Source of the DNA: Syntrophorhabdaceae bacterium
Lineage (GTDB): Bacteria > Desulfobacterota > Syntrophorhabdia > Syntrophorhabdales > Syntrophorhabdaceae
Direction of reading: 5' to 3'
Assembly (NCBI GenBank): GCA_963665295.1
Contig: OY762209.1
Coordinates: 1,728,001 to 1,792,000 of the forward strand
Length of the DNA: 64,000 nt
Below, piece by piece: positions 15,289 through 35,187 of this stretch; the stretch's first letter is position 1; each line of letters begins with the position of its first letter. The position numbers and the translations under genes are program-made. The notes beneath the pieces were generated by a model that saw only the letters and a list, made by a program, of their open reading frames with translations, was not told the DNA's origin and searched no databases.

Positions 15289-15756
15289 ATGAAAGAGAAT
15301 TTTGAATCCACGGTCCGGTTCATCCTGAAAGAGGAAGGGGGCTACGTGACGGACCACGCGGGGGCCACGAAGATGGGCCTTACCGTCGGACTTATGAAGG
15401 CGCTGAAGCTTGACCTTAACCACGACGGGGCGGTGGACGGGAAAGACGTCACCCTTGTGGACGAGGAACTTGTGAGAAAGGTGTTCCTGGAGCAGTTCTG
15501 GAACCCTGTAGGCGGAGACGACCTCCCTCCCGGCATGGACCTCATGGCAGCGGATTTCGCCTATAACGCGGGCCCCAAGGCGGCGAGAGGGCTCCTTGCC
15601 CATGGGGACGTGAGGGATTATACCCTCGGGCGCATCAGGTATTACTGGCAGCTCAGGTGCAAGAATCCCGGGAAGTACAGGGATGATTTCGACGGCTGGA
15701 TAGGCCGCTCGATCCGTGCCTGGCAGAAGGCCGTGGAAATGCGGGCGGGGTCGTAA
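15289..15756 (+). CDS. Glycoside hydrolase family 108 endolysin
   Basis: ILKEEGGYV...GATKMGLT, FW..., DFAYNAGP, FDGWIGR; EF-hand-like DLNHDGAVDGKD insert. Confidence 0.85.
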   Translation: MKENFESTVRFILKEEGGYVTDHAGATKMGLTVGLMKALKLDLNHDGAVDGKDVTLVDEELVRKVFLEQFWNPVGGDDLPPGMDLMAADFAYNAGPKAARGLLAHGDVRDYTLGRIRYYWQLRCKNPGKYRDDFDGWIGRSIRAWQKAVEMRAGS

Positions 15757-15827
15757 GGTAAAGAAAAGTTTGCCGGGGCCTTCCCGGTGTGAAGGACACA
15801 TCAAATACCATACACGGAGGTTACTAC

Positions 15828-16277
15828 ATGGTGAAGGTTTTGGAAAGCTGGTTCGAGGAAGGGTTGCGGTTCGTGGAACACGATATTCTGCCTGTCGCGG
15901 GTCTTGCCCTCAATTTCATCCCCGCCGTCCCGAAGGTGGTGCCCGCAATCCTCTCAAAGATGCCGGAGCTTATCGCCACAGCGGAGAAGATGTTTCCGGG
16001 CAGCGGCAAGGGCGGACTCAAGCAGGATTTCTTCATGAAAACCGCGGAGCTTGTGGCAGCCGATGTGGAGAGCCTTTCCACAGGCGGTCAGGCGGGCACA
16101 TGGAAAGCTCTTCAGCCGAAGATAGAGCCCATCCTCTCCATGGCGATCACAGCCATCAACAGGTTCAGGCCCGGGACTTTCGATTGTGAGGCTGCGGATG
16201 ACGGCGCGGCCCTGTCGGTCGAGAGGCGCCAGGAGGATGAAATGAGGCGTGAGGAAGACCGGGGGCTCTCCCGGTGA
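15828..16277 (+). CDS. Phage hypothetical protein (possibly holin-like)
   Basis: GGAGG RBS; LIATAEKMFPGSGKGGLKQ resembles holin LL-H-like motifs; position after the lysin. Confidence 0.5.
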   Translation: MVKVLESWFEEGLRFVEHDILPVAGLALNFIPAVPKVVPAILSKMPELIATAEKMFPGSGKGGLKQDFFMKTAELVAADVESLSTGGQAGTWKALQPKIEPILSMAITAINRFRPGTFDCEAADDGAALSVERRQEDEMRREEDRGLSR

Positions 16278-16570
16278 GCTGGGCGGAGGTGTTGAAATCC
16301 CTCTCATTCTGGGGGCCGGGCATGGTGATCGCGGGGACTATGGTCGCCGCACTTTACAAACTTGCGGACAAGTATCTCGGCGAATTCATCAAAGCCCAGC
16401 AGGGACAGGCCTCCTCCCTCGCGGCCCTTGCTCAGGGCACGGAGGGCCTGCGGGATTCGGTGCAGGGTTTTGTAGCCGGGGATAACCGGGAGCACCGGGA
16501 AATGATCATTCTTCTCAAATGTGTGACGGAGAAACTGGAACGAATCGAGGAGCAAGTCTATGGATGTTAA
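16274..16570 (+). CDS. Single-TM coiled-coil phage protein (Mu gp25-like position)
   Basis: N-terminal TM segment plus heptad region; GTGA overlap with the upstream gene. Confidence 0.55.
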   Translation: MSWAEVLKSLSFWGPGMVIAGTMVAALYKLADKYLGEFIKAQQGQASSLAALAQGTEGLRDSVQGFVAGDNREHREMIILLKCVTEKLERIEEQVYGC

Positions 16571-16859
16571 GAGAGAAAAATACCGCAGGATCAGGGGGGC
16601 CATGCTCAAATTCCTTGCCAAGGCCCACCCCGGCACCATCGACTCCAGGGTCCTCTACTACCTGCTGGACGACGTGAGATACACCATGACGGAGGACGAG
16701 TTCCTAAGCCACGTGATCTATCTCTCGGAACTCGGATACATGAGGATTGAGAGGCGGGAAGCGACGGGCGTGGAGGTGACCATGTATGTCATCACGCCCC
16801 AGGGTCTGAACCTTCTCGACGGCTTTGTCGCCGACGTCGGTGTGGACGTGAGGTTCTGA
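16560..16859 (+). CDS. Winged-HTH phage protein (Mu gp26-like)
   Basis: IRGAMLKFL...YLSELGY...ITPQGLNLLDG...GV pattern; position before the terminase. Confidence 0.65.
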   Translation: MDVKREKYRRIRGAMLKFLAKAHPGTIDSRVLYYLLDDVRYTMTEDEFLSHVIYLSELGYMRIERREATGVEVTMYVITPQGLNLLDGFVADVGVDVRF

Positions 16860-16911
16860 TGGGCTGTCCAGGGTGCGCCGCACTTCCTGCGGCCTTGCAA
16901 GGCGGCGATGA

Positions 16912-17448
16912 ATGACCCGGAAGGCCTATGGGACGAAAGTACGGGAAGAGGCATACAGGATATGGCTCTCCTCGGGGAAAGACATGGCGAAAACGGTTCG
17001 GGAACTGGAGAAAAAATGCCTCCCTGTGGCGAGGCGGACGGTGGCGGCCTGGAGAGACCGGTATGGCTGGAGGGACCGCGCCCCCGCAATAAAGGAAGAG
17101 CCGGAGGAGGCCCGGACCGATGACGCGGCCCGCCTGATCGCCGACCTGGAGAAACAGAAGGCGAGATACGACAGTTTCTTTGACAGCCTCGGAGAAGCGG
17201 GGATCGACAATCAGGCCACCTACGCCTATACGACCCTCGTGAAAACCATTGCCGAGGTGCGCAAGAAAGCGGCGGAAAAGCCCGACCTCTATGCCATGAC
17301 GCCCGTGGTCATGGATGAGTTCGTGAAGTTCATCAAGGGAAAGGCTTCGAAGGGTTCAGGCAGTCCCGGCGGTTTGAACGGGAAGGACCTGACTGCCTTA
17401 GTCTTCGACCTTATCGACCGGTTTTTCGAAGAGGTCAAACCGGGCTGA
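16912..17448 (+). CDS. Terminase small subunit (Mu gp27-like position, N-terminal HTH)
   Basis: REEAYRIW...RRTVAAWRDRYGW HTH; precedes the large terminase. Confidence 0.7.
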   Translation: MTRKAYGTKVREEAYRIWLSSGKDMAKTVRELEKKCLPVARRTVAAWRDRYGWRDRAPAIKEEPEEARTDDAARLIADLEKQKARYDSFFDSLGEAGIDNQATYAYTTLVKTIAEVRKKAAEKPDLYAMTPVVMDEFVKFIKGKASKGSGSPGGLNGKDLTALVFDLIDRFFEEVKPG

Positions 17449-17526
17449 AGACGGCGGCGAGCCCGGAGCCTGAAAGACGGGCGGAAGTCATGAGCCGGAA
17501 GAGGCAAAAGATAGTGAAGAGTATGA

Positions 17527-19053
17527 ATGAAAGGGGTAGTGAGGACGGCTATGGCGAGTAAAATGGAGATCAAGCGAAAGATCGAGGCGGTTCGGGCCCA
17601 TATGCGCGCGGAGGCGACGCCCTTCGGGAACACCTCGGCGGAGGCGCGGGACGAAAGGGTCAGGAGGTGCCGGGCGGAAGACGGGTATTTCGCGAGGACC
17701 TATCTTCCCCATTACTTCAACCGCCCGTCGCCCGCGTTTCACCGGGAGATCTACGAGTTCGCGAAGGTAGAAGACGAGCCTGTCTTCATCGCGGCCCCGC
17801 GGGAGCATGCGAAGTCTACCATTGTGAGTTTCGAGACCCCTATCGAGGACATCTGTCTCGAGCGGAAGCAGTTCATCATCCTCATTTCCGACACGGAGGA
17901 CCTTGCCGCGGATTTCAATGTCTTCATCATGCTCGAACTGGAAGAAAACGAGCGGATAAGGGCGGACTTCGGGGATTTGAAAGGTCGTCAATGGAAAGCG
18001 GAGGATTTTACCACGAAAAACGGCATCCGGGTCAAGGCGCGGGGCCGCGGACAGCGACTGAGGGGCTTGAGAAACAGGCAGTACAGGCCGGACAGGGTTA
18101 TCATCGACGACCTGGAAAATGACAAGAACGTGAAAAACCCGAAGCTCGTCAAAGAGACGGTCAACTGGATTCTCACCACCGTCATGGGGTCCCTGGAAAG
18201 AAACTTTTCCATGATGATGATCGGGACCATCCTCGCGAGGAATTCCGTCCTCTCCCGGTTTATCGACGCCCTTGACGAGAAGGGGCGGGCCCTCTACCTG
18301 AGCCGGATATACCGCGCCGTCAGGGAAGACGGGACGCCCCTGTGGCCTGACAAGTGGCCCCTCGAAAGGCTCGAAAAGAAGAAGCGGCAGATAGGCTCCG
18401 TCAACTTCAACCAGGAATTCATGAACGACCCCAGGGACGATGAGGGCATGTTCCGGGAGGAATGGATCAGGCCCTACTATCCGGAGGAACTGTCAGGCAG
18501 GCAGCTCAGGGCATACACCTACATCGACCCGTCCATGGAGAATGGGGCGTCCACGGACTACAAGGCAATTATCACCATCGGCATGGACGGGGAAGGCGTA
18601 ATCTACATCCTCGACGCCTTCATCGGCCGGTGCAGTATAGACGCCATGGCGCGGATCGGCTATTCCCGGTACGAGGAATTCCGGCCCCTCGGGTTCGGCA
18701 TGGAAGAAAACGCCCTCGGAGAATTTGCACGGAGCCCTTTCAAGCTTGTGGCAAGGGAGAAGAACTACCAGCTCCCCATACGGGGGATCAAACACTCCAC
18801 ATCCAAGGAAGCCCGGATCGGGAGGCTGTCGGCCTTTGTGGAGAGGGGCATTATAAGGTTCCGGAGGGGCCAGGGGAACCAGGACCTCCTGGTGGAACAG
18901 CTTATCGCCTTTCCGTCGTCCACTGTCAATGACGACGGTCCCGATGCCCTGGAAGGGGCGGTGGCCATGGCCGAAGAAGGCGCGGGAGGCGTGGTGGAGT
19001 TCCAGTCCACGGGCAGGAGAAGGGAATCGACACGAATGGAGGCATATTTTTGA
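17527..19053 (+). CDS. Terminase large subunit
   Basis: Walker A APREHAKST; RGLR...RPDRVIIDDLE; IDPS and DDGPDAL nuclease motifs; start 17527 or 17551. Confidence 0.92.
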   Translation: MKGVVRTAMASKMEIKRKIEAVRAHMRAEATPFGNTSAEARDERVRRCRAEDGYFARTYLPHYFNRPSPAFHREIYEFAKVEDEPVFIAAPREHAKSTIVSFETPIEDICLERKQFIILISDTEDLAADFNVFIMLELEENERIRADFGDLKGRQWKAEDFTTKNGIRVKARGRGQRLRGLRNRQYRPDRVIIDDLENDKNVKNPKLVKETVNWILTTVMGSLERNFSMMMIGTILARNSVLSRFIDALDEKGRALYLSRIYRAVREDGTPLWPDKWPLERLEKKKRQIGSVNFNQEFMNDPRDDEGMFREEWIRPYYPEELSGRQLRAYTYIDPSMENGASTDYKAIITIGMDGEGVIYILDAFIGRCSIDAMARIGYSRYEEFRPLGFGMEENALGEFARSPFKLVAREKNYQLPIRGIKHSTSKEARIGRLSAFVERGIIRFRRGQGNQDLLVEQLIAFPSSTVNDDGPDALEGAVAMAEEGAGGVVEFQSTGRRRESTRMEAYF

Positions 19054-20393
19054 AAGACCGGATATTGAGACCTGTGACCGATGAAATCGCGACCGCGGAG
19101 AAGGACATCTACCAGGACTATATGGGAAAGATCAGGATCAACCCCGACCGGTTGCTCAGGCGGGAGTCCGGCGGAAAAGGCATCGAGCTTTACGAAGACC
19201 TGCTTCGCGACGACCAGGTGGGATCGAACCTCAATACGCGCAAGCTCGCGGTGGTGGGAAAGGAATGGGAGGTTGTCCCCGCCTCGGAAAGAAAACAGGA
19301 CCAGCGGATCGCGGGGTTCGTCAAAGAGGTGCTCCTCAGATGCAATTACGACGATGCCCGAAGGACTCTCCTCTCCGGCCTCGTCCTCGGGTTCAAACCC
19401 GTGGAGGTCATGTGGGAATATTCAGAAGGTGACGTCTGGATCAGGGAGATCATCGGCAAGGCTTCCCGGCGGTTTGTATTCGACCTCGCGGGACGGCTCC
19501 GCCTCCTGACGACCCGGGATATGGTCCAGGGCGAGGAGGTGCCGGAGAGGAAATTCATGGTCTACGCGAATGCCTCCGACAACGGTTCGCCCTACGGCGA
19601 CGGCCTGGGGAGGCTCCTTTACTGGCCCGTGTGGTTCAAGAAGAACGCCATCAAGTTCTGGATGACCTTTGCCGACAAGTTCGGGAGTCCCACTGCCATA
19701 GGAAAGTATCCGCCCGGCACGCCCGAGGCTCAGCAGGACCAGCTTTTGTGGGCCATTGACGCCATACAGCAGGAATCGGCCATCAAAATACCGAACAACG
19801 TGGAGATCGGTTTCCTGGAAGCGACCCGCTCCGGGTCGGTGAACACCTACGAGAGCCTTTGCGCATTCATGAACGCCGCCATATCCAAGGTGCTCCTCGG
19901 CCAAACCCTCACCACGGAGGTGGGCGCAGCAGGGAGCTACGCGGCCTCGCGCACCCACGAGACGGTGCGGGAGGATTACGTCAAGGCCGACGCGGACTCC
20001 CTGTGCGCCGCCCTCAACCGTCAACTCGTGCGCTGGATCGTGGACTACAACTTCCCCGGCGTGACCCGGTACCCCTTGGTCTGGATCAGGACGGAGGCGG
20101 AAAAGGACCTTAAACTCCTTGCCGACCGGGACAAGGTGATCATCGTAGACATGGGGGTGCCTGTAACCGCCGATTACATCTATAACACCTATGGAATCCC
20201 GAAGCCCGAGGACGGCGAGAAGCTTATAAATGCCCCTGCAAAAGGGCCTGTAAGCCCACAACCGGATCAGCCAAACCCGCAAAATGATAGGTCCGCAAGT
20301 TTTGCAGAACAGACCCCTGGGAACTCCGCGCTCATCGAGGCGCAACGGAACATAGACACTCTCGCGGGTAATGCCGTGAAACAGGCAGAATAG
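19050..20393 (+). CDS. Mu gp29-like portal protein (DUF935), C-terminus probably clipped by a deletion
   Basis: PYGDGL, FKKNAIKFW, KFGSPTAIGKY, ISKVLLGQTLTTE, GSYAASRTH. Confidence 0.9.
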   Translation: MKDRILRPVTDEIATAEKDIYQDYMGKIRINPDRLLRRESGGKGIELYEDLLRDDQVGSNLNTRKLAVVGKEWEVVPASERKQDQRIAGFVKEVLLRCNYDDARRTLLSGLVLGFKPVEVMWEYSEGDVWIREIIGKASRRFVFDLAGRLRLLTTRDMVQGEEVPERKFMVYANASDNGSPYGDGLGRLLYWPVWFKKNAIKFWMTFADKFGSPTAIGKYPPGTPEAQQDQLLWAIDAIQQESAIKIPNNVEIGFLEATRSGSVNTYESLCAFMNAAISKVLLGQTLTTEVGAAGSYAASRTHETVREDYVKADADSLCAALNRQLVRWIVDYNFPGVTRYPLVWIRTEAEKDLKLLADRDKVIIVDMGVPVTADYIYNTYGIPKPEDGEKLINAPAKGPVSPQPDQPNPQNDRSASFAEQTPGNSALIEAQRNIDTLAGNAVKQAE

Positions 20394-20560
20394 TCATGAG
20401 AAAACGTTATGTTTCGTCTATCGATGCGGGCGGAAATCGGCAGATGCTGCTTGTCGCGGAGAGCGCCCGAGGGCAATGGACGGGGTACACAGCCTTCTAT
20501 ACGCGGAATTACGGCTACATTGACGGCATTCGGAACGGGGTATTGCTCTATGGAAAATAG
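20378..20560 (+). pseudogene. C-terminal remnant of a MuF-associated PBECR2-like nuclease/toxin domain
   Basis: Frame of ATG 20396 reads RETGRIVMRKRYVSSIDAGGNRQMLLVAESARGQWTGYTAFYTRNYGYIDGIRNGVLLYGK*; RxRY...WxGxT...Y...RxGxLLY pattern; occupies the gpF slot. Confidence 0.6.
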
Positions 20561-20639
20561 ACGGGGTCAGGCGTCCCCCGTGCGGAACGTGGCCGGTCTT
20601 TGCTGTGTCGGGTGCACGGCCCACAGCATCGACATCACA

Positions 20640-20667
20640 AGTATAACACAGCAAAAGGACGTGTCAA
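20640..20667 (-). promoter_or_regulatory. Near-consensus sigma70 promoter, antisense to the phage operon
   Basis: Minus strand TTGACA-N16-TATACT with extended -10 (TGTTATACT). Confidence 0.7.
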
Positions 20668-20671
20668 GGGG

Positions 20672-20899
20672 CCGATCGACACCGCCCGGCTTCGGAACGC
20701 CACAAATTACAGAGCCTATGCGAACAGGGTGAAAATAGGCACGAATGCAGTGTATTCCGCCATTCATCAGTTCGGAGGCAAGACAGGCAGGAGCCCTAAA
20801 GTTACGATTCCCGCCCGGCCGTATCTCGCGGTCCACGATGAGGATTGGCCGGAGATCAAAAGGGTAATTGAGAACTATCTCACGAGGAGGAACGCATAA
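20672..20899 (+). pseudogene. C-terminal half of a Mu gpG-like virion morphogenesis (tail-completion) gene
   Basis: IDTARLRN...IGTNAVYSAIHQFGG...IPARPYL motifs; N-terminal half and a credible start are absent. Confidence 0.75.
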
Positions 20900-22062
20900 T
20901 GCCAAACTACATCGAGCGCCGATTCCCCGTCTTTAAGGCGGGCACACACACGGATTCGGGAGGGCAGCAAAGAACCTGGACCCCTGCCGATCTCGACCAT
21001 ATGGCTTCGGCCTACGATCCCGCTCACCACGAAGCCCCCGTGGTGATAGGTCACCCCAAAGACAATTCACCGGCCTTCGGCTGGGTCAAGGGCTTGAGCC
21101 ACGAGGACGGCATGATCTACGCCCGGGCGGAACTTGTTCCGGAATTCGATGAAATGGTGCGGAAGGGCCTTTTCAAGAAGCGTTCCATCTCGCTCTATGA
21201 AGACGGCTCGCTGAGACATATCGGGTTCCTCGGGGCAAGGCCGCCCGCGGTAAAGGGGCTCCCTGATATCCGGTTCAACGACGGGAAGGAGGCTGCGGTC
21301 GTCATCGTGACGAACAGTCTCCAGGGACCGAACGGAAACGAAGTGCCCCGCGGCAAACCAAGGGGTTTCAAAGGCGATTACCCCGCCTTGACACTGTTTC
21401 GAAGCACGCTTCGGGGTATGGGCCCGCGGGGCAATCAACCACAAGGAGGTAGAGAAATGAAATTTTTCGAATGGGCCAGACAACTGGCCGGCAAGGAAGG
21501 GGTCACCCTCGAAGACCTGCCCCCGTCCTTTTCCGAGGCGGAGATTGAGAAGAGGATCGAAAAGGCCTTGACGGAGGAGCGAACGAGGATTGCCACGGGG
21601 TTTGCCGAGGCGCGGAAGGCGGAGGAGGAAAAACTGAGAAAGAGGGAAGAGGACCTCAACGCAAAGGAAAGAGAGGCGAGAAACAAGGGCATCGCCTCAT
21701 TCTGCGAGGCCCTGGAAAGGGAGGGGAGGCTTACCCCGGCTATGATGAAGGCGGGTATGGGCATGACGAACTTCCTCACCGCCATCGGTTCCATGGATGG
21801 GACCATCGAGTTCGGGGAGACAGACCACAAGACCTCGCAGACCCCCCTCGAGTTCATGGAGATGTTTCTCCGAGGGCTCCCCAAAGCCATAGAATTCGGC
21901 GAAGTGGCCTTTGCGGGCAAGGACCCCGGGGCAAAGGGGGACTCCGGGAAATGGGAAAGGCTCGTGGAGAGCTACATGGAAAAGAATCCCTCGGCGTCAT
22001 ACAGGGAAGCGATACTCATTGTGTCGAAGGAGAACCCGGAGCTTTTTCAGGAAAGGGAGTAG
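20899..22062 (+). CDS. Mu gpI-like prohead protease with C-terminal scaffold
   Basis: APVVIGHP, PAFGWV, FKKRSIS, LRHIGFLGARPPAVKGL. Confidence 0.88.
   Translation: MPNYIERRFPVFKAGTHTDSGGQQRTWTPADLDHMASAYDPAHHEAPVVIGHPKDNSPAFGWVKGLSHEDGMIYARAELVPEFDEMVRKGLFKKRSISLYEDGSLRHIGFLGARPPAVKGLPDIRFNDGKEAAVVIVTNSLQGPNGNEVPRGKPRGFKGDYPALTLFRSTLRGMGPRGNQPQGGREMKFFEWARQLAGKEGVTLEDLPPSFSEAEIEKRIEKALTEERTRIATGFAEARKAEEEKLRKREEDLNAKEREARNKGIASFCEALEREGRLTPAMMKAGMGMTNFLTAIGSMDGTIEFGETDHKTSQTPLEFMEMFLRGLPKAIEFGEVAFAGKDPGAKGDSGKWERLVESYMEKNPSASYREAILIVSKENPELFQERE
21457..22062 (+). CDS. Nested in-frame scaffolding protein (Mu gpZ-like)
   Basis: AAGGAGGT RBS six nt before the in-frame ATG 21457; coiled-coil product. 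Confidence 0.65.
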   Translation: MKFFEWARQLAGKEGVTLEDLPPSFSEAEIEKRIEKALTEERTRIATGFAEARKAEEEKLRKREEDLNAKEREARNKGIASFCEALEREGRLTPAMMKAGMGMTNFLTAIGSMDGTIEFGETDHKTSQTPLEFMEMFLRGLPKAIEFGEVAFAGKDPGAKGDSGKWERLVESYMEKNPSASYREAILIVSKENPELFQERE

Positions 22063-22109
22063 AGGGTCCGCGGTTCCAACGACCTAAAGGGTTAATACAA
22101 GGAGGCAAT

Positions 22110-22493
22110 ATGATAGGACAGACCACAGGATTGGAGAAATCGGTAAAGTGCGGGGCAGCCGTACCTGAGGCGTATACCATCGCCAAATTCGGCGCGGACG
22201 ACGATACCATGTCCCTTGCCACAGGGGCATCGGACATGCTCGCCGGTGTTTTCCAGCATACCACCACGGAGGCGGGAGAAGAGGTGCGCCTTATGATGGG
22301 AGGGGTGACGAAGATCAGACTCGGCGGGTCGGTCACCAGGGGGCATGCCCTCACGTCCGACGCGTCGGGCCGGGGAATCTCCGCCGCCCCCGCAACGGGA
22401 AGCAACGCCCGCGTTATTGGTGTGAGTCTCGCGAGCGGTGCCTCGGGAGACATTGTCACCATGCTCATCGCCCCGTCCGTAATACAGGGGTAA
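22110..22493 (+). CDS. Capsid decoration/cement protein (DUF2190-like)
   Basis: GGSVTRGHALTSDASGRG...ASGASGDIV; AAGGAGG RBS. Confidence 0.8.
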   Translation: MIGQTTGLEKSVKCGAAVPEAYTIAKFGADDDTMSLATGASDMLAGVFQHTTTEAGEEVRLMMGGVTKIRLGGSVTRGHALTSDASGRGISAAPATGSNARVIGVSLASGASGDIVTMLIAPSVIQG

Positions 22494-22549
22494 GAGCCAT
22501 TCAGGCGGCTTAAAGACGTTCGAGGGATTAAGAAAAGGAGGAAGACCAC

Positions 22550-23488
22550 ATGTCCGAACCGAGACAATTGCACGTAGACAGCGTATTATCGAATCTTTCC
22601 ATCAAATACAGGAACGAAGCCATGATCTGGCCCAGGGTCCTGCCCCAGGTTAAAGTGGGTTTCCGGTCAAACAAGTTCGACAGGTATAACAAAGAGGACA
22701 GCTACCGCCTCGCCGCCGACCATATCGGCCCGAAATCTCTCCCCAACGAAGCGGAGTGGGGAGTGACCCAGGACAACTATTCCGTGAAGGACCACGCCCT
22801 CGGGGAATGGCTCCCTCAGGAAAGCATAGACAACGCGGACAATCCCCTTCAGCCGGAGATGGATACCAACGATTTCCTGAACCTTCTCCTCGATATTGCC
22901 CAGGAGAGAAGAGTGGCGAACCTGGTTTTCAGCGCCGCCGCCTATCCCACGGGGAACAGGGTCAGCCTCTCGGGTACCTCCCAGTGGGGCGGGTCCGCGG
23001 ACGACCCCATAGGGAACCTCCTCACTGCGGTGGAATCCTGTTTCATCCGGGCCAACACAGTGGTAATGGGGGCGGAAACGTGGCTCACCTTCCGCAAGTT
23101 GCCGGAAATCCTCGACGCGGTAAAAGGAGGGTCCCGCTACCAGGGGAGCCCCGGAGGGCTTGCCACCACAGACGAGTGCCGGGGCCTCTTCGAAGTGGAG
23201 AACTGGCTCGTGGGGAGGGGCCGCTACATTACCTCTCCCGAAGGGCAGACCTCCGCGTTTTCAAGGCTGTGGGGCAAGCATTGCGCGGCCCTCTACGTGG
23301 ACCCGAACCCGGGGGTTAAGACCGTCACTTTCGGGGTTACCTTTTCCGAGATGCTCCGCCAGACCCAGCGCGATTTCGACCCCAAAAGGGGCATTAAGGG
23401 TGCCCACTATTTCAAGGTAGCCTGGAACTCGGACGAGAAGATCATCGCAAGCGACCTGGGGTATTTGATCGAGAACGCGGTACCGTAA
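22550..23488 (+). CDS. Major capsid protein (HK97 fold)
   Basis: HVDSVLSNLSIKYRN, ERRVANLV, LSGTSQW, DPI, LWG, GYLIENAV. Confidence 0.88.
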   Translation: MSEPRQLHVDSVLSNLSIKYRNEAMIWPRVLPQVKVGFRSNKFDRYNKEDSYRLAADHIGPKSLPNEAEWGVTQDNYSVKDHALGEWLPQESIDNADNPLQPEMDTNDFLNLLLDIAQERRVANLVFSAAAYPTGNRVSLSGTSQWGGSADDPIGNLLTAVESCFIRANTVVMGAETWLTFRKLPEILDAVKGGSRYQGSPGGLATTDECRGLFEVENWLVGRGRYITSPEGQTSAFSRLWGKHCAALYVDPNPGVKTVTFGVTFSEMLRQTQRDFDPKRGIKGAHYFKVAWNSDEKIIASDLGYLIENAVP

Positions 23489-23504: not shown

Positions 23505-23669
23505 ATGCCCGCATACAGAGTGTTGGATGCACATATATACCACGACGGGGCCATGTACGGTCCCGGCGACATGGTGGAGCTTACGGAGGAACAGGCGGAA
23601 AAACTTCGTGTGGCAAAGGTGGCGGAGGGCCGGAAGAATCAGGAAAAGGGCGGCACGAGGAAACGATAG
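23505..23669 (+). CDS. Small head-associated protein (Mu gp35-like position), 54 aa, absent from the ORF track
   Basis: AAGGAG RBS; MPAYRVLDAHIYHDGAMYGPGDMVELTEEQAEKL... Confidence 0.65.
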   Translation: MPAYRVLDAHIYHDGAMYGPGDMVELTEEQAEKLRVAKVAEGRKNQEKGGTRKR

Positions 23670-23686: not shown

Positions 23687-24118
23687 ATGTACAGTACCAT
23701 CGATGATTTGAAAAAACTGATCCCGGAGGAAACCCTCATCCAACTCACGGACGACGAGGGGAAAGGGGTGGTAGTGGTCACCCGGGCGGAAGAGGCTATA
23801 GCGCAGGCGGATGGGGAGATTGATTCGTATTGCGCCGTGAAATACGCGGTTCCCCTCGTCCCCGTCCCCGGGATCGTGAAGAAATGTTCCGTCGACATGG
23901 CCCTCTATAACCTTTACAGTCGTCGCGTGGAGGAGATCCCTTCCACCCGCGCCGACCGTTACCGGAATGCGGTCCGCCTTCTCGAGGGAATAGTGAAAGG
24001 GACCGTATCCCTCGGAGAGGTCCCCGGAGCGGAGGCTCCAAGGCAGGGCGATTGGATCGAATCGACCCGGGAGGAAAGTGAAAGGACCGTGACGAGGTCG
24101 AGGCTGGAGGGATTCTGA
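23687..24118 (+). CDS. Mu gp36-like head-tail adaptor (DUF1320)
   Basis: MYSTIDDL...LIQLTDD...ADGEIDSY...YAVPL...RYRNAVRLLE...GTVSLG. Confidence 0.88.
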   Translation: MYSTIDDLKKLIPEETLIQLTDDEGKGVVVVTRAEEAIAQADGEIDSYCAVKYAVPLVPVPGIVKKCSVDMALYNLYSRRVEEIPSTRADRYRNAVRLLEGIVKGTVSLGEVPGAEAPRQGDWIESTREESERTVTRSRLEGF

Positions 24119-24120: not shown

Positions 24121-24627
24121 ATGAGGACAGACACGGACGCGGGATGGGGGAGGGATGAATGGGCCGACCAGCCCTACGGCGGGTTATTGGATACCGTTGT
24201 CGCCATAGAAGAGGCGATAAAGGCCGGGATCAGGGATGCCATGCCCTATGTGAAGACGGTGGATACCTACGCGGGCCAGCTCGAAGAGGATATCTCCCGC
24301 CTTGTCCAACCCTTTCCCGCGGTCTTCGTTACTTACGGAGGCTCGGCGTTTGAGTGGGTGGACGGCCGCAGTTTCAGCGCTGCACCGGATTTTTCGGTTA
24401 TCGTGGCGGCCAGGGATTTGAGGGGCAAAGAGGATTTGAGGAAGGCCGAATACGGTTGCTACCGGATGGTCGCAGACGCCCTCGCCGCCATCGCCAACCA
24501 GACCTTCGGGCTGGACATCCTGCCCATGAAGCCCGTCAAGGTGGCGCTCATGCTGGTTTCAAGGACCGTGGCAGCCTATGGCATAGATTTTCAGACCGCC
24601 TTCGACACCGTCTATCCCCCGCAATAG
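24121..24627 (+). CDS. Mu gp37-like neck/tail-terminator protein (DUF1834)
   Basis: IEEAI, VDTYAGQL, FPAVFVTYGG; synteny after gp36. Confidence 0.75.
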   Translation: MRTDTDAGWGRDEWADQPYGGLLDTVVAIEEAIKAGIRDAMPYVKTVDTYAGQLEEDISRLVQPFPAVFVTYGGSAFEWVDGRSFSAAPDFSVIVAARDLRGKEDLRKAEYGCYRMVADALAAIANQTFGLDILPMKPVKVALMLVSRTVAAYGIDFQTAFDTVYPPQ

Positions 24628-24763
24628 AAGAAAGAGGAGGAAAGATAAGGAATATGAAGGAGGCGGAACCCGGTTCAGGGACGAGGTATTTGAAAGAGCC
24701 GCGAATACGGGGAATGCGACTGAAGGCAGCGATGATATGACAAGTTCAGAGGAGGGATAAACC

Positions 24764-25825
24764 ATGCCAAGCGGAGTGGCGGGAGTAGAAGTAAGAGGGG
24801 CATTGAAAAAGGCCTCGGCGTGGGGCGCGGCGGTGGCGTGCGCAACGGGTGACGGAATACTGATGTTGCCGTCGAGCCTCAGGAAGGACGCACCGATCGA
24901 AATCGACGATTCAATGGGCACATTTTTCAGCAAGGACGGCCTTCCCGGCACCATCAAGGTGGAGGGGGACCTTCTCGCGTATTTGAGGTATGACGGCCTG
25001 GACGTGCCCATCGCCCTTGCCATGGGCATTGCGGGCGCGCCGGCCCAGCAGGGGGCTGCCGCCGCCTATGGGTTCACCTACAGGTTCGCCACGTCGGTGG
25101 ATGGTTTGTTCGCGAGCTTCGCGCAACACATGAAGAACTACATCATGGAAATCCCGTCCCTCAAGGTGACCGGATTCACCATCAAGGGGGAAACGGGCAA
25201 AGCCGTGGAGATCACCTTTCACACGATCTCAATCAACAAGGTCTATGACTCGGCAGTCAATACGACTGCCACATTCGATAATGTCACCTATTTCGAGCAG
25301 CAGAACCGTATAAAGTTCTCCGAGTCGGTGTTCCGGATGAACGACCAGGGCGGCGCGGCCCTCGGCTCCGGTGACAGGATATACCCGAGTTCCTTTGAGC
25401 TTTCAGTGAAGAGGAAGCTGAAAGGAGAGTATACGGGGGAGTTCAAATACACCGGCGGCTCGAATGTGCAGGATTTGATTGATGAGCCCACCAATGACGG
25501 CATGCCGGAAATCAGTCTGAAAATAGTTTTTCCGAGGCACACGGGCACGACGTATCTCGCGGCCCTCGGCACGGATACGCGAAAGAAGATGGACATTACC
25601 TTTACGGGAGCGAATATCGCCTCCGCCTACAACAGGACTTTTGCGCTCCGGTTCCCCCACCTGCAACTCAGGAACGACGATCCCGCGGATGCGGCGGGGA
25701 TCATCAGGGAACCCCTGGAATTTATCGTTCACGGGGCAGTGACCGCGCCCGTGGGTATGACGGGGTGTACGGACCCCCTGTGGATAAGCGGGATCAATAA
25801 GCGCTCCACCGACCCTCTGGCATAG
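24764..25825 (+). CDS. Major tail tube protein (non-contractile)
   Basis: Beta-rich, siphoviral tube-like sequence; position before the chaperones and tape measure; no sheath gene. Confidence 0.7.
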   Translation: MPSGVAGVEVRGALKKASAWGAAVACATGDGILMLPSSLRKDAPIEIDDSMGTFFSKDGLPGTIKVEGDLLAYLRYDGLDVPIALAMGIAGAPAQQGAAAAYGFTYRFATSVDGLFASFAQHMKNYIMEIPSLKVTGFTIKGETGKAVEITFHTISINKVYDSAVNTTATFDNVTYFEQQNRIKFSESVFRMNDQGGAALGSGDRIYPSSFELSVKRKLKGEYTGEFKYTGGSNVQDLIDEPTNDGMPEISLKIVFPRHTGTTYLAALGTDTRKKMDITFTGANIASAYNRTFALRFPHLQLRNDDPADAAGIIREPLEFIVHGAVTAPVGMTGCTDPLWISGINKRSTDPLA

Positions 25826-26364: not shown

Positions 26365-26645
26365 ACTTTCCTGGTGTGTCGTGCGAGGAATGCGAGCGGG
26401 GCCGGCAGATCGACGGCGACGTGCCCCGTTGCGAGACGGAGCAGGGCTGCATCATTCCGTCCCTGGAGGGGACGGGCGCGCGGGTCATGGCGATGAGGGA
26501 AAGATTGACAAGCCTCAAGGGCCTGGTCGACAGCGGAACTGTCCTGGCCTTATACGAAGCGACGAGGGAAGACCTGGAAATGCTTGCGAAGGTGGAAGAG
26601 GCGATGGGAACAATGAAACAACCGGGGAGTATGAAAAATGGCTGA
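26337..26645 (+). CDS. -1 frameshift extension of the tail assembly chaperone (gpT-type)
   Basis: -1 frame is open from the slippery site 26331-26337 into track ORF 26376-26645 (CEEC...C...C). Confidence 0.75.
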   Translation, partial: LLSHIRARIDFPGVSCEECERGRQIDGDVPRCETEQGCIIPSLEGTGARVMAMRERLTSLKGLVDSGTVLALYEATREDLEMLAKVEEAMGTMKQPGSMKNG

Positions 26646-28338
26646 GCTGAGGATCACAGGCACCGGGGACAAGGACATCCGGAGAGGGCCCTTAGCGGTG
26701 AAGGACAACCTGCCATCTGCCTTTCGCCGGGCGGGGTGCGCCAGGTTCATCTCCGCTTTCGACATGCTGAAGACCGGGTTCGGCCCAATCATCACGGCCG
26801 GTCCCGTGTCTGCGCCCCTTATGATCGATTTGCCGGCCAGGCCAATGGATGATGTGGTGGAGGCGCAAATGCCCGACGCCATAATCAGTGCGCCCCGCAA
26901 CAGGGGATGTGGCACGCAGCAGGGCGGGCAACATGGGAATCCGCCAAAGGAGAAGGGCGTGGATTTCGTGTCACCCCTCTCTGTGGTGACGTCCACGGAC
27001 CGGCCGTGCGCCGGGACCCGTGGGTTGACCGGCGGCCGTATATGGGCCGCGCCGGGTGTGGCTGTACCAGGGGATACCCGCATATTACAGGCGACGGAAA
27101 CGTGCGGCCGTGACGGGCAATCCCGAAGAAGGGAGCCCACCGGATGCACGGGCATCGATACGGGGAGGGACCGGGCATGTCACGAGCCTGTCCTGTTCCT
27201 CGATAGGCGGGCGGCCGCGCCTCGGGTGACGGAGAAAGGCGTGACGAGTTGGATGGTCCCGAAAAACCCGGGCAGGACGTCTTCCAAAGTCCGTGTCCCG
27301 GCCATGGACAGGGTGGAGACGGAGGCTCGGGAGCCTTCCGGGTATCGCACCCGGTCCGGAGGATTGGGCGAGGCTGCCAACGGGACTGTCCGCCTCTTTG
27401 CCCCCTCTCCCGTCGCCCGCCTTGACGCGGGTGCGCCCAGACCCGAACACCGGTCCAGGTCCGGCAATATTGAAACAAGGGGCGTCAAAACAAGCCTTGC
27501 AGTCGATAGGCGGGCGGCCGGGACGGACCGGATCAGCCGGGCCTTTTCGAAATCCCCCAACCAGGCCAAGGAAGCGCTTGTGCATCAAATTCCCGCGCCG
27601 AGCCGCATCCTTCGGGAAAGAGGGGGCGTCCGGCACGTCGAGCTCCCGGAATTGAAGGGTGGAGAGGGGGCAAGGACGCCTGAAGGCTTCCGGAGAAGGA
27701 CCTTTGCCTCGTTGAGGGAGGTATTTCGTGTTGAAAGGGAAAAACTTCCTGCGAAAGGAAGAGCGGGTTTGGACGTCTTCGGGGAATTCCGGGACCCCGG
27801 GATGGCGGGGGCATACCAAACGATGGTGAAACAGGACAAGGGAGAGGTTTACAGGAAGGGTTATGACCCCATGTCCTTCCATGAACAATACGGTCTCCGG
27901 GGCAAGGTCCCGGAGTCGTCCCGTGTTATCGGCTCTCAGAAAACGGGCTCGACCGACCGGTTCGGGCGAATGGGCGTCCCTCCTCTTCGCGAGGGGGCGC
28001 ACATCGTGCCCGTGAAGAAAGACGTGAGGTCCGCGGTTATCGAGGTCCACGGGACGATTGAGACCACAGGGCTTATAACGGGCTATGCCGCGGGCACGGA
28101 CTATGTGCCCCGGACAGGCCTCTATCAGCTCCACAAAGGCGAGGCGGTAATACCCGCGAAAGAAAACAGGCGGGGCGGTTCGGGCCGTTCGGAGGACCCG
28201 CGCTCCCCGGCACCTTCCATTATCCTGTCGCCGGGGGCCATAGTCATCAATGGCGCCGACAAATCGCCCGAGGAACTGGCCCGCCTCATCGTAAAGCCTC
28301 TTGACAGGGAACTCAAAAGACTGGGGTATAGGTCATGA
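26638..28338 (+). CDS. Degenerate tape-measure-like protein
   Basis: TMP position; TMP-like termini (MAELRIT...; GYAAGTDYVPRTGLYQLHKGEAVIP...IVINGA); core rich in Arg/Pro/Gly. Confidence 0.6.
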   Translation: MAELRITGTGDKDIRRGPLAVKDNLPSAFRRAGCARFISAFDMLKTGFGPIITAGPVSAPLMIDLPARPMDDVVEAQMPDAIISAPRNRGCGTQQGGQHGNPPKEKGVDFVSPLSVVTSTDRPCAGTRGLTGGRIWAAPGVAVPGDTRILQATETCGRDGQSRRREPTGCTGIDTGRDRACHEPVLFLDRRAAAPRVTEKGVTSWMVPKNPGRTSSKVRVPAMDRVETEAREPSGYRTRSGGLGEAANGTVRLFAPSPVARLDAGAPRPEHRSRSGNIETRGVKTSLAVDRRAAGTDRISRAFSKSPNQAKEALVHQIPAPSRILRERGGVRHVELPELKGGEGARTPEGFRRRTFASLREVFRVEREKLPAKGRAGLDVFGEFRDPGMAGAYQTMVKQDKGEVYRKGYDPMSFHEQYGLRGKVPESSRVIGSQKTGSTDRFGRMGVPPLREGAHIVPVKKDVRSAVIEVHGTIETTGLITGYAAGTDYVPRTGLYQLHKGEAVIPAKENRRGGSGRSEDPRSPAPSIILSPGAIVINGADKSPEELARLIVKPLDRELKRLGYRS

Positions 28339-30955: not shown

Positions 30956-32749
30956 ATGGGATACGACGAAACAACAAATTTGAAGCTCAAGAAACCCACG
31001 GTGGGCACGGTGAAAACCGAGTGGCCCGGCTATATTAACGGCAATTTCGACACCTTGGACGCAGAGGTAGCCTCCCGGCACAAATCGGGAGACACATTCC
31101 CGGAGAATATAGTTCCCGACGCCGACAATACCCGCTCCGTAGGCTCGGCGATCAGGCGGTTTCTCGGCGGCTTCTTCAACGAGATTACCCTGGGCGGCGT
31201 GACGCGTTCGACTTGGCCATCTCCCGGATCAGGATCACAGAGCATGGACGATACGTATAACAACGGGAGTCAGGTGGATGTGGACAACACGGACGAAGTG
31301 CGCCGCCTGGGAGCGGGCAAAAAGTGGAAACTGGTGAACGCTGACGGGTCAATCACCTACATGGAAGCGGAGGGAGGGGCCGGGATTACCCTCACCCCTC
31401 ACAATGACGTAACCCATGCCAATGAGATCGCCGGTGCGCGATTCGGGGAGTGGAGCCAGGGAACCCTCGAAAACGTGGGGGCTGATCTCGCCTCGAACGG
31501 GGGATTCACGGCCGATACAACGGGCTGGACCCCTGACCTTGCCGCCCTTGCGAGCATAGCCGGGGGGCAAAGCGGAAACTGCCTCGAATTGACCCGGTCG
31601 AGTTGGAGCATTCAGACGGCAAGGACAGCGCTGACAGGGCTCACCATAGGGAAGCTGTACCGGATGACCGTGTATGTCAAGAGCGGTACTTCCGGCAATG
31701 AACCGTTCAATATATCCGTCCTCGATGCTTCGGGCGCTACGCGTTATGGTCTCACATCCGGAGTATCATCCGGTTCCTGGGTGTCATATTCAGTGACAAT
31801 CACCGCCCCCGCGACAACCGCCATGCTCTCCCTGGAGAAGAACACCGCCACTGCCGGGACCATGCTGTTCGATTCGGTATCCTTCTACGAAGTGACGCCC
31901 GGCTGCGTGGGAGCCGACACTAAAGGGCCTGATGGCTGGCTCAAAAGCGTGGGACTGACAATCTACAGGGAGCATCCGGGGACAAACACGCAAAGCGGGT
32001 CATTCTATTCCCTGAAAGGGGTGAGCCCCGATGCTTCCGGATACGCCACATACTGCAATCCGGGGGCCAATCCCTCGGTTCTTGCAAAGCTACGGGGACG
32101 GACTATCGCCCTGGGCGCGTGGGTAAAATCGTCGGTAGCCGCCTCGGAGAGATTATCATTTTATGACGACGTCTCCGGGGAAACTGCGTCCCCGTACCAT
32201 TCCGGAGGAGGGGGATGGGAATGGCTGGAGGTTACAAAGACCGTGTCTGTCGCTGCAACGCTTATCTATGGTCGGCTTAACCAGATGAAGGCAGGCACGG
32301 CCCATTTTTCCCAGCCCATGCTCATCGTCGGCAAGGTGATCGGGGCAGGCAACTATGGCCCCCGTCCGGGAGAAATCATATGGCTCGATGCGCCGGTGGC
32401 GCTTTCGACCCTCCATGACAAGGCGGGGTTAAGCACCGCAGCCGCCGCAGCCCTCAGTCTGGAACCGGATTCAGAAGGGTTGATCGGGAAGGGCGTGAAG
32501 GCGGTCTACTTGAGCATGGAGGCAAATGACAGCGCGAGCGCGGGCGGCGATTGCAATGTGAGCCTCGGCCCGGTGAGCGGCAATCAACCCTTTTGTTGTT
32601 CACCCGCAGGCCTCGCCAACAGCAGGGCTGCGCGGGCTCAAGGATGGGTGCCGCCGGCAGCAGACGGCACGTTGAGCTATGCCCTCACCGCCACGGGAAG
32701 CGCCACCATGGCTATCACGAAGGCAAAGGTAATAGCGGTACAGTACTAA
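30956..32749 (+). CDS. Tail fibre / receptor-binding protein with carbohydrate-binding-module-like domains
   Basis: TTNLKLKKP...INGNFDTLD anchor; LASNGGF..DTTGW...FDSVS CBM4/9-like domain; HSGGGGWEWL. Confidence 0.7.
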   Translation: MGYDETTNLKLKKPTVGTVKTEWPGYINGNFDTLDAEVASRHKSGDTFPENIVPDADNTRSVGSAIRRFLGGFFNEITLGGVTRSTWPSPGSGSQSMDDTYNNGSQVDVDNTDEVRRLGAGKKWKLVNADGSITYMEAEGGAGITLTPHNDVTHANEIAGARFGEWSQGTLENVGADLASNGGFTADTTGWTPDLAALASIAGGQSGNCLELTRSSWSIQTARTALTGLTIGKLYRMTVYVKSGTSGNEPFNISVLDASGATRYGLTSGVSSGSWVSYSVTITAPATTAMLSLEKNTATAGTMLFDSVSFYEVTPGCVGADTKGPDGWLKSVGLTIYREHPGTNTQSGSFYSLKGVSPDASGYATYCNPGANPSVLAKLRGRTIALGAWVKSSVAASERLSFYDDVSGETASPYHSGGGGWEWLEVTKTVSVAATLIYGRLNQMKAGTAHFSQPMLIVGKVIGAGNYGPRPGEIIWLDAPVALSTLHDKAGLSTAAAAALSLEPDSEGLIGKGVKAVYLSMEANDSASAGGDCNVSLGPVSGNQPFCCSPAGLANSRAARAQGWVPPAADGTLSYALTATGSATMAITKAKVIAVQY

Positions 32750-32760
32750 GAGGAGGATAC

Positions 32761-33159
32761 ATGGATATCACGATCAGCCCGAACGGCTATAGACCCATAG
32801 ACGATGCAAATCAGGTCACCTATTTTACGCTTACGGCGGCCGGCACAGCCTATAAATGGCACGGGAATACACCCGTTCTCACCGGTCAGGACCTTTCGGA
32901 TTATCTTGCTGCCCATGCGGGGCAGTACCTGTGCGGCATCTATCGGAAGATGTACGTGGAGGCCATAGTCGTGCCACAGCCCGGCGAGACCGAATTAACC
33001 GCGTGGACCCGATGGGTTTCGGAAGGATGCAAGAATACCCGGGAGATCGAGGCTATGGTGGATGGCGAGGTGACGAGCCGGGTCGTTGAAGAGCCGGTCC
33101 CATTGAAACCCTGGAAGGACACCCACCCGATGAGTGAAAACCCGATTATATGGGAGTGA
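32761..33159 (+). CDS. Hypothetical protein (fibre-associated)
   Basis: GAGGAGG RBS; follows the fibre gene. Confidence 0.55.
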   Translation: MDITISPNGYRPIDDANQVTYFTLTAAGTAYKWHGNTPVLTGQDLSDYLAAHAGQYLCGIYRKMYVEAIVVPQPGETELTAWTRWVSEGCKNTREIEAMVDGEVTSRVVEEPVPLKPWKDTHPMSENPIIWE

Positions 33160-33339
33160 AAAGCTCGGGAGGACCGCACTTCCGGTCCGCGCCCACTCAA
33201 ACCATGGGTGACCGTCGAGACCGGGCCTTGCCGCGGGCCGTGAATCCGTGCTAAAAGAGATCAAGGCAACGGAAAACGGCGTCACGATTCGGCCCCGGGA
33301 CGGGGGCGACTCACAGCCGGGAGCCACATAACAGGGAGG

Positions 33340-35187
33340 ATGGACATGAAATCATGGGAAAACGGCATAATGGGGCGTTGCGCGGTGGGCTTGGTCGTCA
33401 TAGCAGCGATGCTGTGCATGGGTGCAGCACTTCAAGCCGCTTATGGCGCCCCGGTCGTCACGGCAGACTTAGTCACAACCGGCCCCTGGGTCGATTCGAG
33501 GGCCTATGCCACGATCAACGCCGCCGAAGCAGCGGCATACGCGGCGGGAAAGACCTTGAAAGTGTTCGTGCCCCAAGTGCTTGCGGCGAGCCTCACGGTG
33601 AGGTGCGCCCTCGACATCGAGCCCGGGGGGAAGATCATCAAGGCGTCGGGCCACACCCTTACCGTCAACGGCCCCTTCAGGGCCCCGGATCAACAGGTCT
33701 TCCAGGGTTTCGGCACTAGGGACATCAAATTCGGGAGTGCGGCAATCAGCGAAGCCGTGCGGGTCAACTGGTTTGCCGCCAACACGACGCCGGGCACGAC
33801 GGACATGGCGGACGCCGCCCACACGGCGATCAATGCCGCGGCGGGGCGTCTGGTCCTCTTCGGGATAGGCGAATACCGTATGACCTCTTCCCTCGATCAC
33901 AACGTGACGGCCACGGAGATCAGAGTCAGGGGCGCGGTGCCCGCCTATATCACCCATGGCGTGCTGAAACCTGCCTATACTTATTCAGCGGACTACACCC
34001 CTCAGAGCATCGATATCCCGTCAGACCGGTTCACCGTCATTCAGATGGACGGCGCGAACCTCATAGGGGCGGACGACGCCGCGTCCGTCGGGTCATCGGG
34101 TAAACTCAGATATTTGGCGAATATCCTCGCTTACGGGAAGAACAACGCGAAGATAGGCATTTATGCACAAACCTATGACACGGTGATCGAGGACTCCCAC
34201 TTTGCGTTGTTCAGGAATTTCGGCATACTGTTTCGAGGTGGAATGACGGGAACGGTCCGGAGGGTCGCTTATACGGATAACGGTTGGGGACTGACAGAGT
34301 CGGGGACTACGGCATACCCGTATACCTATTACTCGGGATGCCAGTACAAGGTAGTGTCGAACTATGTCCCGGGGGATTACGCGTCCATAGACCCCGCCAA
34401 GAGGGCTACTACCATAAATACGGATACCACGTTCTTCACCGTGCGGGGCCATATGGTCCGGAATATGAGCGGCTACCGGGGAGCCCAGGTATCAGGACTG
34501 TACAACAGCTCGATGAGGGCTATGCAGGGTTATATAGGGTCTCTCTTTGTTGTTTCAACGGTTAGCCTTGACGGACTCTATGTCGAGAACTACGCCATGC
34601 ATGGCCTGAGCCGGTCGGACTCTCTGCCACACTGCATTTACAGCGTGTTTTCCAATCTTGCCATAACCACGCCGTTTATGGCCAACAATGGGGTTCCGTC
34701 TATGCCCGTGGTTTTTCAGAACTCGAATGGCACGGGAGGGGGCGTGAGCAACGCGATTACGCAGATGGACGCTCTCGGGCTGAAAGGAGCCATCATACGC
34801 TCCGAAAAACAGGCGGTAATCACGGTAGGGACTCCCGGGGGCGCACCCGCATACAGGCTGTTCAGCGAACTGTTCAGCGACTTGGAGGGGTTCACAGGCC
34901 TCATATTCGTGACCATCGTGCAGAGGAACAATAGCGCAAATTACGCCACCGCAATCTACGCGGCCCATCGGCATACCGTTGCGGGAGTGCTGAAGGCGCC
35001 CGCGTCCCTTCGACTACAGGAATATCACAGCAGCGCCGCGGGCTACCTCGCCCGGATTGCCGGTGTAGCCCCGAACGCGACCCGGGGTCTCGACATTACG
35101 ATCGACTGGGGCGCTTCATGGGACGCAAAGACGGAATTTCACGTAACGGCAGGCGTAATCGGAAGCACCTCGTTGAGCAGCCCATGA
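33340..35187 (+). CDS. Pectate-lyase-3 / tailspike-like beta-helix protein with N-terminal signal-like segment
   Basis: VRVNWFAANTTPGTTDMADAAHTAINAA...GEYRMTSSL entry motif; hydrophobic N-terminus ending AAYGA. Confidence 0.65.
   Translation: MDMKSWENGIMGRCAVGLVVIAAMLCMGAALQAAYGAPVVTADLVTTGPWVDSRAYATINAAEAAAYAAGKTLKVFVPQVLAASLTVRCALDIEPGGKIIKASGHTLTVNGPFRAPDQQVFQGFGTRDIKFGSAAISEAVRVNWFAANTTPGTTDMADAAHTAINAAAGRLVLFGIGEYRMTSSLDHNVTATEIRVRGAVPAYITHGVLKPAYTYSADYTPQSIDIPSDRFTVIQMDGANLIGADDAASVGSSGKLRYLANILAYGKNNAKIGIYAQTYDTVIEDSHFALFRNFGILFRGGMTGTVRRVAYTDNGWGLTESGTTAYPYTYYSGCQYKVVSNYVPGDYASIDPAKRATTINTDTTFFTVRGHMVRNMSGYRGAQVSGLYNSSMRAMQGYIGSLFVVSTVSLDGLYVENYAMHGLSRSDSLPHCIYSVFSNLAITTPFMANNGVPSMPVVFQNSNGTGGGVSNAITQMDALGLKGAIIRSEKQAVITVGTPGGAPAYRLFSELFSDLEGFTGLIFVTIVQRNNSANYATAIYAAHRHTVAGVLKAPASLRLQEYHSSAAGYLARIAGVAPNATRGLDITIDWGASWDAKTEFHVTAGVIGSTSLSSP

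Follow-up and report, generated by a model that had tools for sequence, protein, structure and literature searches.

A Mu-type late gene cluster and an unlinked cI, Gam and Mor cassette in a Syntrophorhabdaceae bacterium: a candidate gene transfer agent-like system

Introduction

Is a block of Mu-type virion genes that lies among bacterial genes, with nothing to replicate or mobilise it, a prophage in decay or a particle that its host has kept? The question is posed by a cluster of phage late genes at positions 15289-35187 of a 64,000-nucleotide stretch of chromosome from a Syntrophorhabdaceae bacterium (the window, G000:C1:1728001-1792000 of the closed, 5.5-Mb source genome G000), which a preliminary description read as a candidate host-retained particle resembling a gene transfer agent (GTA), with a decaying prophage as a real alternative. 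We compared it with the rest of G000, with three congeners (G001, G002 and G003), and with further genomes and loci (other G and L numbers). The cluster has probably been domesticated in one role or another, and it may well encode a likely inducible, GTA-like particle, which is the reading that we tentatively favour.

Results

A late gene cluster between host genes

All genes from 15289 to 35187 lie on the + strand and are late genes, and matches to Pfam and PHROGs profiles, by which we named proteins, identify a GH108 lysin, TerL, a Mu-type portal, a protease, the major capsid protein, Mu gp36 and gp37, a tail tube and a chaperone. Host-type genes adjoin directly, a haloperoxidase-like gene on one side and, 34 bases after the last cluster gene, a carbamate-kinase gene (arcC) on the other, and GC content per kb within the cluster (0.55-0.64) shows no shift from that upstream (0.54-0.62). 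A Pfam/PHROGs scan of the window's proteins gave no sign in the cluster of a transposase, MuB, repressor or Mor, and comparison of the cluster with the end regions of two resident prophages, A and B, revealed no likeness. The preliminary description is thus borne out in its account of a late-genes-only cluster of about 20 kb, flanked directly by host genes, host-like in composition, lacking transposase, MuB, repressor, Mor and recognisable ends, and uninterrupted in its packaging and capsid genes (TerL, portal core, protease and capsid are intact). Its gene labels hold for lysin, TerL, portal, protease, capsid, neck, tube and chaperone, and are only positional for holin, decoration, tip and fibre, where the genes have no match, a weak match, or a match under another name.

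Prophages A (~434500-474400) and B (~5432300-5466300 of G000:C1) are complete-looking, Mu-like and equipped with transposase and MuB; in B the tail is of the window's type and MuF and gpG are intact, and A has a contractile-type tail. A further large prophage (G000:C1 ~2446000-2530000) contains fibre-region genes that resemble the window's.

An assembly error at the left junction is ruled out, as two runs, each from a separate study, yielded one 29-kb contig apiece that covers positions 13500-20192 with zero differences; both may stem from the source strain. Read mapping gave no strain variation usable for measuring selection, and most of the listed differences match prophage B.

A cI, Gam and Mor cassette in trans

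A repressor and an activator, reported as absent in the preliminary description, exist at a second locus. At G000:C1:1689851-1692001, 51 kb upstream of the lysin gene, a gene for an S24 repressor cI (PF00717+PF07022) faces away from gam (PF07352) and mor (PF08765); none of the three frames is interrupted, and host genes begin about 30 bases away on either side. The same three genes lie between the same neighbours in G001, an orthologous site. Between G000 and G001 the proportions of nonsynonymous differences (pN) are 0.17, 0.19 and 0.08 for cI, Gam and Mor, and those of synonymous differences (pS) are 0.72, 0.68 and 0.81, with medians of 0.18 and 0.63 for 21 flanking host genes. In trees the cI and Mor proteins of the two genomes are sisters (97 and 98), apart from the prophage copies. 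A perfect inverted repeat over the -35 box (G000:1690601) occurs once in G000 and is kept in G001. Host-level divergence, the shared site and the sister trees together indicate that the cassette is vertically inherited and under selection, Mor most strongly. The search for a trans-acting activator that the preliminary description had proposed therefore succeeded.

In phage Mu, Mor-family proteins activate late promoters and Gam binds DNA ends. Mu-type late genes in Mu order and the early genes cI, gam and mor are all present in G000, the latter unlinked, and the cassette is separate from the late cluster in both G000 and G001; we infer a regulatory link from cassette to cluster. Neither locus contains genes for self-replication, excision or transposition, the transposases of G000's prophages A and B being located elsewhere.

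A predicted late promoter

The DNA upstream of the lysin genes of G000 and G001 aligns with a score of 64 that 0 of 500 shuffles reach, as against 59 and 64 of 500 in the comparisons with prophages A and B and 5 of 500 in that with G002. Ahead of their lysins, prophages A and B have a box (its pattern was derived from those prophage sites themselves) that is absent upstream of the window and G001 lysins. Positions 15185-15252 are thus a likely promoter and Mor target, judging by this conserved upstream DNA; a loose genome scan with the window promoter motif returned 13 unrelated-looking sites and did not recover the promoter itself.

The prophage box pattern matches in G000 only prophages A and B and two copies of an element of ~920 bases, in which a lone small-terminase gene of the window's type stands behind a prophage-type late promoter. 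The two copies (C1:687563-688480, in L018 and L133, and 813105-814024, in L136) are 96% alike; G001 has at least six loci (contigs C134, C89, C50, C40 and C33), several of them broken, and the elements are 80-88% alike between species. They are possibly minimal packaging parasites or phage traps.

The same cluster in a congener

The operon recurs in G001 (100% complete, 140 contigs), running from lysin to fibre and bordered by host genes at either end. There the portal ends near 400 amino acids (aa), directly before the protease, with no MuF and no gpG, and the tape measure is open, 197 aa long, and has the same ends as the window's. This genome gave no match to two Mu transposase queries or to the MuF family. 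A complete relative, located in G002, carries transposase, MuB, Gam, GemA, Mor, MuF, gpG and a tape measure of 908 aa; in it, as in a Mu-like transposable prophage and unlike in the window cluster, transposase, MuB and ends are linked to the late genes. The cluster agrees with the G002 prophage and prophage B in the order of genes between lysin and fibres, with protein identities of 53-93%. In G003 (93% complete) the terminase, capsid, Gam and Mor queries found no match. The winged-helix gene of the complete G002 prophage is interrupted by what we take to be an IS607-type gene pair (G002:C53:85100-87000; L008:15117-16963; L009:17-2kb upstream region).

Gene content and reduced genes

The features of the cluster, in window coordinates, are as follows.

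15185-15252 (+): predicted late promoter; -10-like TAGACT at 15236-15241; upstream box common with the G001 module; putative Mor target
15289-15756 (+): endolysin, glycosyl hydrolase 108; PF05838, phrog_315
15789-16277 (+): lysis-region protein, no family match; 31% match at the same position in G001
16274-16570 (+): small membrane protein, holin-like by position and hydrophobic N-terminus; no family match; 86% to G001
16560-16859 (+): winged-helix protein of Mu-like phages; phrog_436; 79% to G001
16912-17448 (+): small terminase, full length (178 aa), N-terminal part kept; weak PHROG TerS matches; 56% to the G002 prophage, 38% to G001
17527-19053 (+): large terminase, intact; phrog_38, E 2e-95; 76-78% to G001 and G002
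19050-20393 (+): Mu-type portal, 447 aa, core complete, C-terminal part cut; PF06074, profile 2-336 of 336
20375-20560 (+): MuF remnant (PBECR2 end); 64% to G002 MuF 316-376; PF18810
20639-20899 (+): gpG (tail-completion) remnant, 5' part deleted; PF05069, profile 76-147 only
20899-22062 (+): head maturation protease/scaffold; phrog_976
22110-22493 (+): small head protein, decoration or scaffold-type; phrog_673 (annotated as head scaffolding protein)
22550-23488 (+): major capsid protein, intact; phrog_1005; 87% to G001, 77% to G002
23505-23669 (+): small DUF7210-like protein; PF23843, slightly below cut-off
23687-24118 (+): head-tail adaptor, Mu gp36; PF07030, phrog_195
24196-24627 (+): Mu gp37, tail-terminator type, start approximate; PF08873, weak PF23840
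24764-25825 (+): tail tube protein; PF18906
25951-26645 (+): two tail-assembly chaperone genes, both also in G001, G002 and prophage B; phrog_313 for the first (start approximate), positional label for the second
26638-28338 (+): tape-measure gene, 566 codons; conserved ends, unrecognisable middle, no hydrophobic segment
28335-30955 (+): two tail-tip genes (728 and 145 aa), labelled by position; weak phrog_11439; 79% and 93% to prophage B, 53% and 62% to G001
30956-33159 (+): fibre-like protein with carbohydrate-binding domain, then a small gene; PF02018; 79% to prophage B
33340-35187 (+): last gene, 615 aa, probably fibre- or depolymerase-like; no family match; 70% to the last gene of prophage A

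Just past arcC, at 36351-36881, is a lone Pycsar-effector-like membrane protein (PF18967), with no cyclase seen adjoining.

The portal stops at 447 aa, as compared to 510-517 aa in G002 and prophage B; what is left of MuF corresponds to the last 61 of 376 residues of the G002-type gene, and gpG lacks about 200 bases relative to prophage B, against which its pN/pS is 0.39. The dead parts within the portal-to-protease stretch have raised pN/pS relative to B (0.39 and 0.54). The preliminary description had confined damage to MuF, gpG, the portal tail and the tape measure, and is right about the first three. A broken tape measure is rejected, the gene being a single open frame of 566 codons with conserved ends. 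Its middle comprises 441 open codons, a result achieved by 0, 0 and 2 of 3000 shuffles of three kinds, and a homologue search among 8000 scored candidates returned only itself and one weak match over 12% of its length. Also missed was an apparently decayed copy, at 24627-24764, of a gene of 59-62 aa that sits between gp37 and the tube in prophage B and G002; only ~20 bases fill this gap in G001.

Stripped modules in other genomes

Capsid searches led to G096 and its relatives, where a single capsid gene of this kind is present in 10 of 81 genomes (9 within the first 12 listed). Mor matches occur in all 10 genomes with the capsid and in 3 of 20 tested without it; these kin are not independent, and two (G491 and G489) hold complete prophages. 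Stand-alone cI-Mor pairs adjoin cysK in G096, G486, G492 and G489 and lie elsewhere in G487, G485, G490 and G495, and G488 and G491 have the cI, Gam-Mor arrangement. Mor matches in L114-L120 are mostly beside gemA, and in one complete prophage (L113, G489:C10) a Mor-like gene lies between the large terminase and portal.

In eleven modules the portal is 385-441 aa long and a MuF gene is absent, and in nine of these an intact tail-completion gene is missing too, a short one being kept in G096 and L181. The lysis region is preceded directly by host genes in six of the eleven and by cI-Mor ~4.6 kb upstream in two, and in the other three the contig starts too near to it to show what precedes. Tape measures are 183-279 aa in G001, G096, G489 and G495, no chaperone or tape-measure gene was found in G486 and no tube in G487, and a hydrophobic segment is present in the tape measures of both complete phages and none of the five stripped modules considered. 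As a control, 42 of 46 related portals on viral contigs are long or followed by MuF, three are cut by contig ends, and one (L181) is short; all five long ones tested are portal-MuF fusions. Such fusions, of 680-790 aa in L143, L151, L055, L156 and L049, are common in related phages. We left out L045, L065, L039 and L063 as duplicates of G487, G096, G017 and L055, and G509 as ambiguous (a 438-aa portal of another type on a contig that starts near the lysin). In a Mu-like prophage of G017:C169 (L079, L080) the terminase-portal-MuF-gpG block is inverted relative to the other genes.

The capsid and portal trees put stripped modules at at least four separate places among complete phages, and all core genes found in the 10 stripped or partly stripped modules scanned are full open frames. 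One intermediate, G488, has the cI, Gam-Mor arrangement and no transposase that we found, keeps MuF and gpG, and shares its flank with the stripped modules of G485 and G495. The stripped sister pairs show the signature of purifying selection, with pS 0.18 and pN 0.021 over six genes of G492 and G489, and pS 0.51 and pN 0.10 over nine genes of G495 and G485, which share a locus. Vertical inheritance and purifying selection are thus seen for the cassette and for other stripped pairs; the window cluster itself is mosaic, and in G001 the corresponding cluster occupies a different position.

Neither MuF nor the tested transposases were found anywhere in G001, G486, G487 and G492. The absence of transposases rests on two protein queries, one of them run without a positive control genome, because PF09299 misses G000's own two transposases; PF02914 matched nowhere, controls included. 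These genomes bear on the proposal that the cluster acts against phages or as a parasite, by adding a short portal and an odd tape measure to the particles of related Mu-like phages and so spoiling them, or by borrowing MuF and gpG from a helper prophage. Prophage B, which matches the cluster in type of portal, neck and tail and has both genes intact, would be a suitable partner, and the small terminase elements suggest that parasites of this kind exist here. However, the module encodes a lysin, a TerL and a capsid itself, the box found before the lysins of prophages A and B is missing from it, and the four genomes above offered no such partner in these searches, so that we regard this as quite improbable.

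Mosaic ancestry and the case for decay

A number of observations weigh against domestication. The late cluster occupies a different site in G001, so that the expectation of finding it between haloperoxidase and arcC in relatives was not borne out; these flanks have no clear orthologues in the three congeners, where arcC has no real match and the best haloperoxidase match is 47%. The system is present in two of four genomes of the genus, and close capsids in four of the order's 96 genomes and in two of 401 genomes sampled from the phylum. The holin-like, winged-helix and capsid genes are nearest to G001, the terminases to G002 and the last gene to prophage A, and for the portal, chaperones, tip and first fibre the match to the complete prophage B (79-93%) exceeds that to G001. 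The sisterhood of the G000 and G001 capsids is weak (87/33), the portal tree gives no firm placement, and synonymous sites between the window cluster and G001 are near saturation. From portal residue 400 to protease residue 60, pS relative to prophage B is only 0.15-0.30, which suggests that MuF and gpG were lost recently in G000, separately from G001. The measurements of selection after immobilisation come from the branches of other modules, and the tail genes of G096 and G486 give raw pN/pS of 0.5-0.66 (saturated). Finally, the small terminase retains its N-terminus in G000. Absence of the N-terminal DNA-binding domain is a hypothesised GTA trait, the Rhodobacter capsulatus GTA (RcGTA) being so truncated according to PMC6854486. 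Small terminases are full length in G000 and G001 (181 aa in the latter) and 82-91 aa in G096, G486, G487, L048 and L181, with one of 93 aa in G488, which keeps MuF.

The cluster could then be a decaying prophage of the local Mu-like pool, with the cassette kept for its own sake (immunity, DNA-end protection) and not driving it. We consider this unlikely, yet it keeps some weight, since the nearest relatives of several genes belong to a complete prophage that G000 itself contains; the differing site, the mosaic closeness to prophages A and B and the complete G002 prophage, the recent-looking remnants and the patchy spread all speak for it, and purifying selection on defective prophages is called pervasive (PMC13626063, citing Bobay 2014). 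It sits poorly with Mor, the most conserved cassette gene, which needs a target, with core genes that stay open, with the repeated loss of the same few genes across modules, and with a tape-measure middle that has drifted beyond recognition and yet remained an open frame. Two histories are conceivable: an old module may have acquired a recent patch and then lost MuF and gpG a second time, or what we see may be a remnant of younger date. The tape measure, long drifted but open, would favour the former. Of the host-retained particle in the preliminary description, then, domestication is supported by the vertically kept cassette, the congener with the same stripped cluster and the recurrence under purifying selection in a second lineage, and the shared locus was not borne out.

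Discussion

Our preferred reading, a domesticated GTA-like particle, would work as follows. DNA damage would cleave the repressor, as its S24 domain suggests, and with the repressor gone Gam and Mor would be made and Mor would fire the promoter at 15185-15252. As there is no excision or transposition, the terminase could presumably fill heads with chromosomal DNA only; Gam may shield the cut ends, and lysis would release the DNA-filled particles. The genes lost are those that route DNA to the cytoplasm, so the DNA would be left outside the inner membrane, to be taken up through ComEC and DprA as for RcGTA. Recombination with resident Mu-like prophages probably renews the fibre, tip and portal parts. 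Both comEC and dprA are present in G000, but they occur in all five genomes tested, with or without a module.

The assignment of the lost parts to cytoplasmic delivery, with head filling kept, follows from the known roles of gpG, MuF and the tape measure. SPP1 particles without the tail-completion protein are reported to look normal and to release their DNA outside the cell, and Mu gpG is listed in the same protein class (PMC11099176). The MuF-type protein gp7 is a portal binder, without which ~25% of virions are still infectious (PMC6316719). RcGTA is described as having a short tape measure, ejecting DNA into the periplasm and needing competence proteins (PMC7296036).

The SPP1 result would also speak for a PBSX-like weapon or decoy, in which host DNA is packaged and remains undelivered, and binding kills or disturbs related cells. 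PBSX itself is reported to package 13.4-kb host fragments and act as a tailocin (PMC12946183), and the fibre genes here are exchanged with phages. We nevertheless think such a function rather unlikely, as it is the tail that erodes, as in G486 and G487, while terminase, portal core and capsid stay, the reverse of tailocins, which lose head and packaging genes (PMC4542187). A plain tailocin is rejected, TerL, portal core, protease and capsid being intact.

A broader and more speculative proposal, somewhat doubtful as it stands, is that Mu-type transposable phages have repeatedly been tamed into GTAs by one route. The early region would be reduced to a vertically kept cI-(Gam)-Mor switch, and the late operon would shed just the parts for cytoplasmic delivery (portal tail, MuF, tail-completion protein, tape-measure membrane segments and, in the most extreme case, the tube). 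Incoming phages would supply replacements or patches for the structural payload, with the switch persisting, and small mobile terminase elements would ride the packaging machines. A literature search over listings and the openings of abstracts showed no Mu-derived GTA or split cI-Mor system. How phages give rise to GTAs, and how a GTA can be distinguished from a remnant in sequence data, are described as open questions (PMC11841831). Here the steps of domestication can be read off because complete phages, the G488 intermediate and stripped modules sit side by side; a short Mu portal directly before the protease together with an unlinked cI-Mor pair provides a sequence signature, and mor is the single gene whose expression should switch the system on. 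The pattern suggests that a phage becomes a harmless DNA carrier at the point where it loses its genes for cytoplasmic delivery.

Comparison with known systems

The cluster resembles RcGTA in being a head-tail cluster without replication genes whose regulators lie at other loci, and in its short tape measure and predicted reliance on competence genes, as far as these are covered in PMC7296036, PMC5026251 and PMC11841831. It differs in its Mu-type portal, gp36 and gp37 families, a phage-own cI and Mor switch, a full-length small terminase and a narrow, patchy spread, and gene transfer by it is a prediction. Among complete Mu-like siphophages the nearest named capsids are those of the Pseudomonas phages JD18, JBD67 and PM105 (33-34%); unlike complete phages of this type the cluster has no transposase, MuB or ends, its early region is cut to unlinked cI, Gam and Mor, the portal tail, MuF and gpG are lost, and the tape measure is altered. 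PBSX of Bacillus subtilis and FpGTA of Faecalibacterium differ from the cluster in host and in phage ancestry. Both are, like it, defective and phage-like, and are reported to package host DNA with delivery absent or unproven (PMC12946183), packaging being predicted in our case. The R-type syringacin of Pseudomonas syringae is likewise a co-opted phage, with a Mu-like tail and SOS-type repressor induction according to PMC4542187, and the two have been trimmed in opposite directions, in that syringacin keeps the tail and loses head and packaging, whereas the cluster keeps head and packaging and trims the tail.

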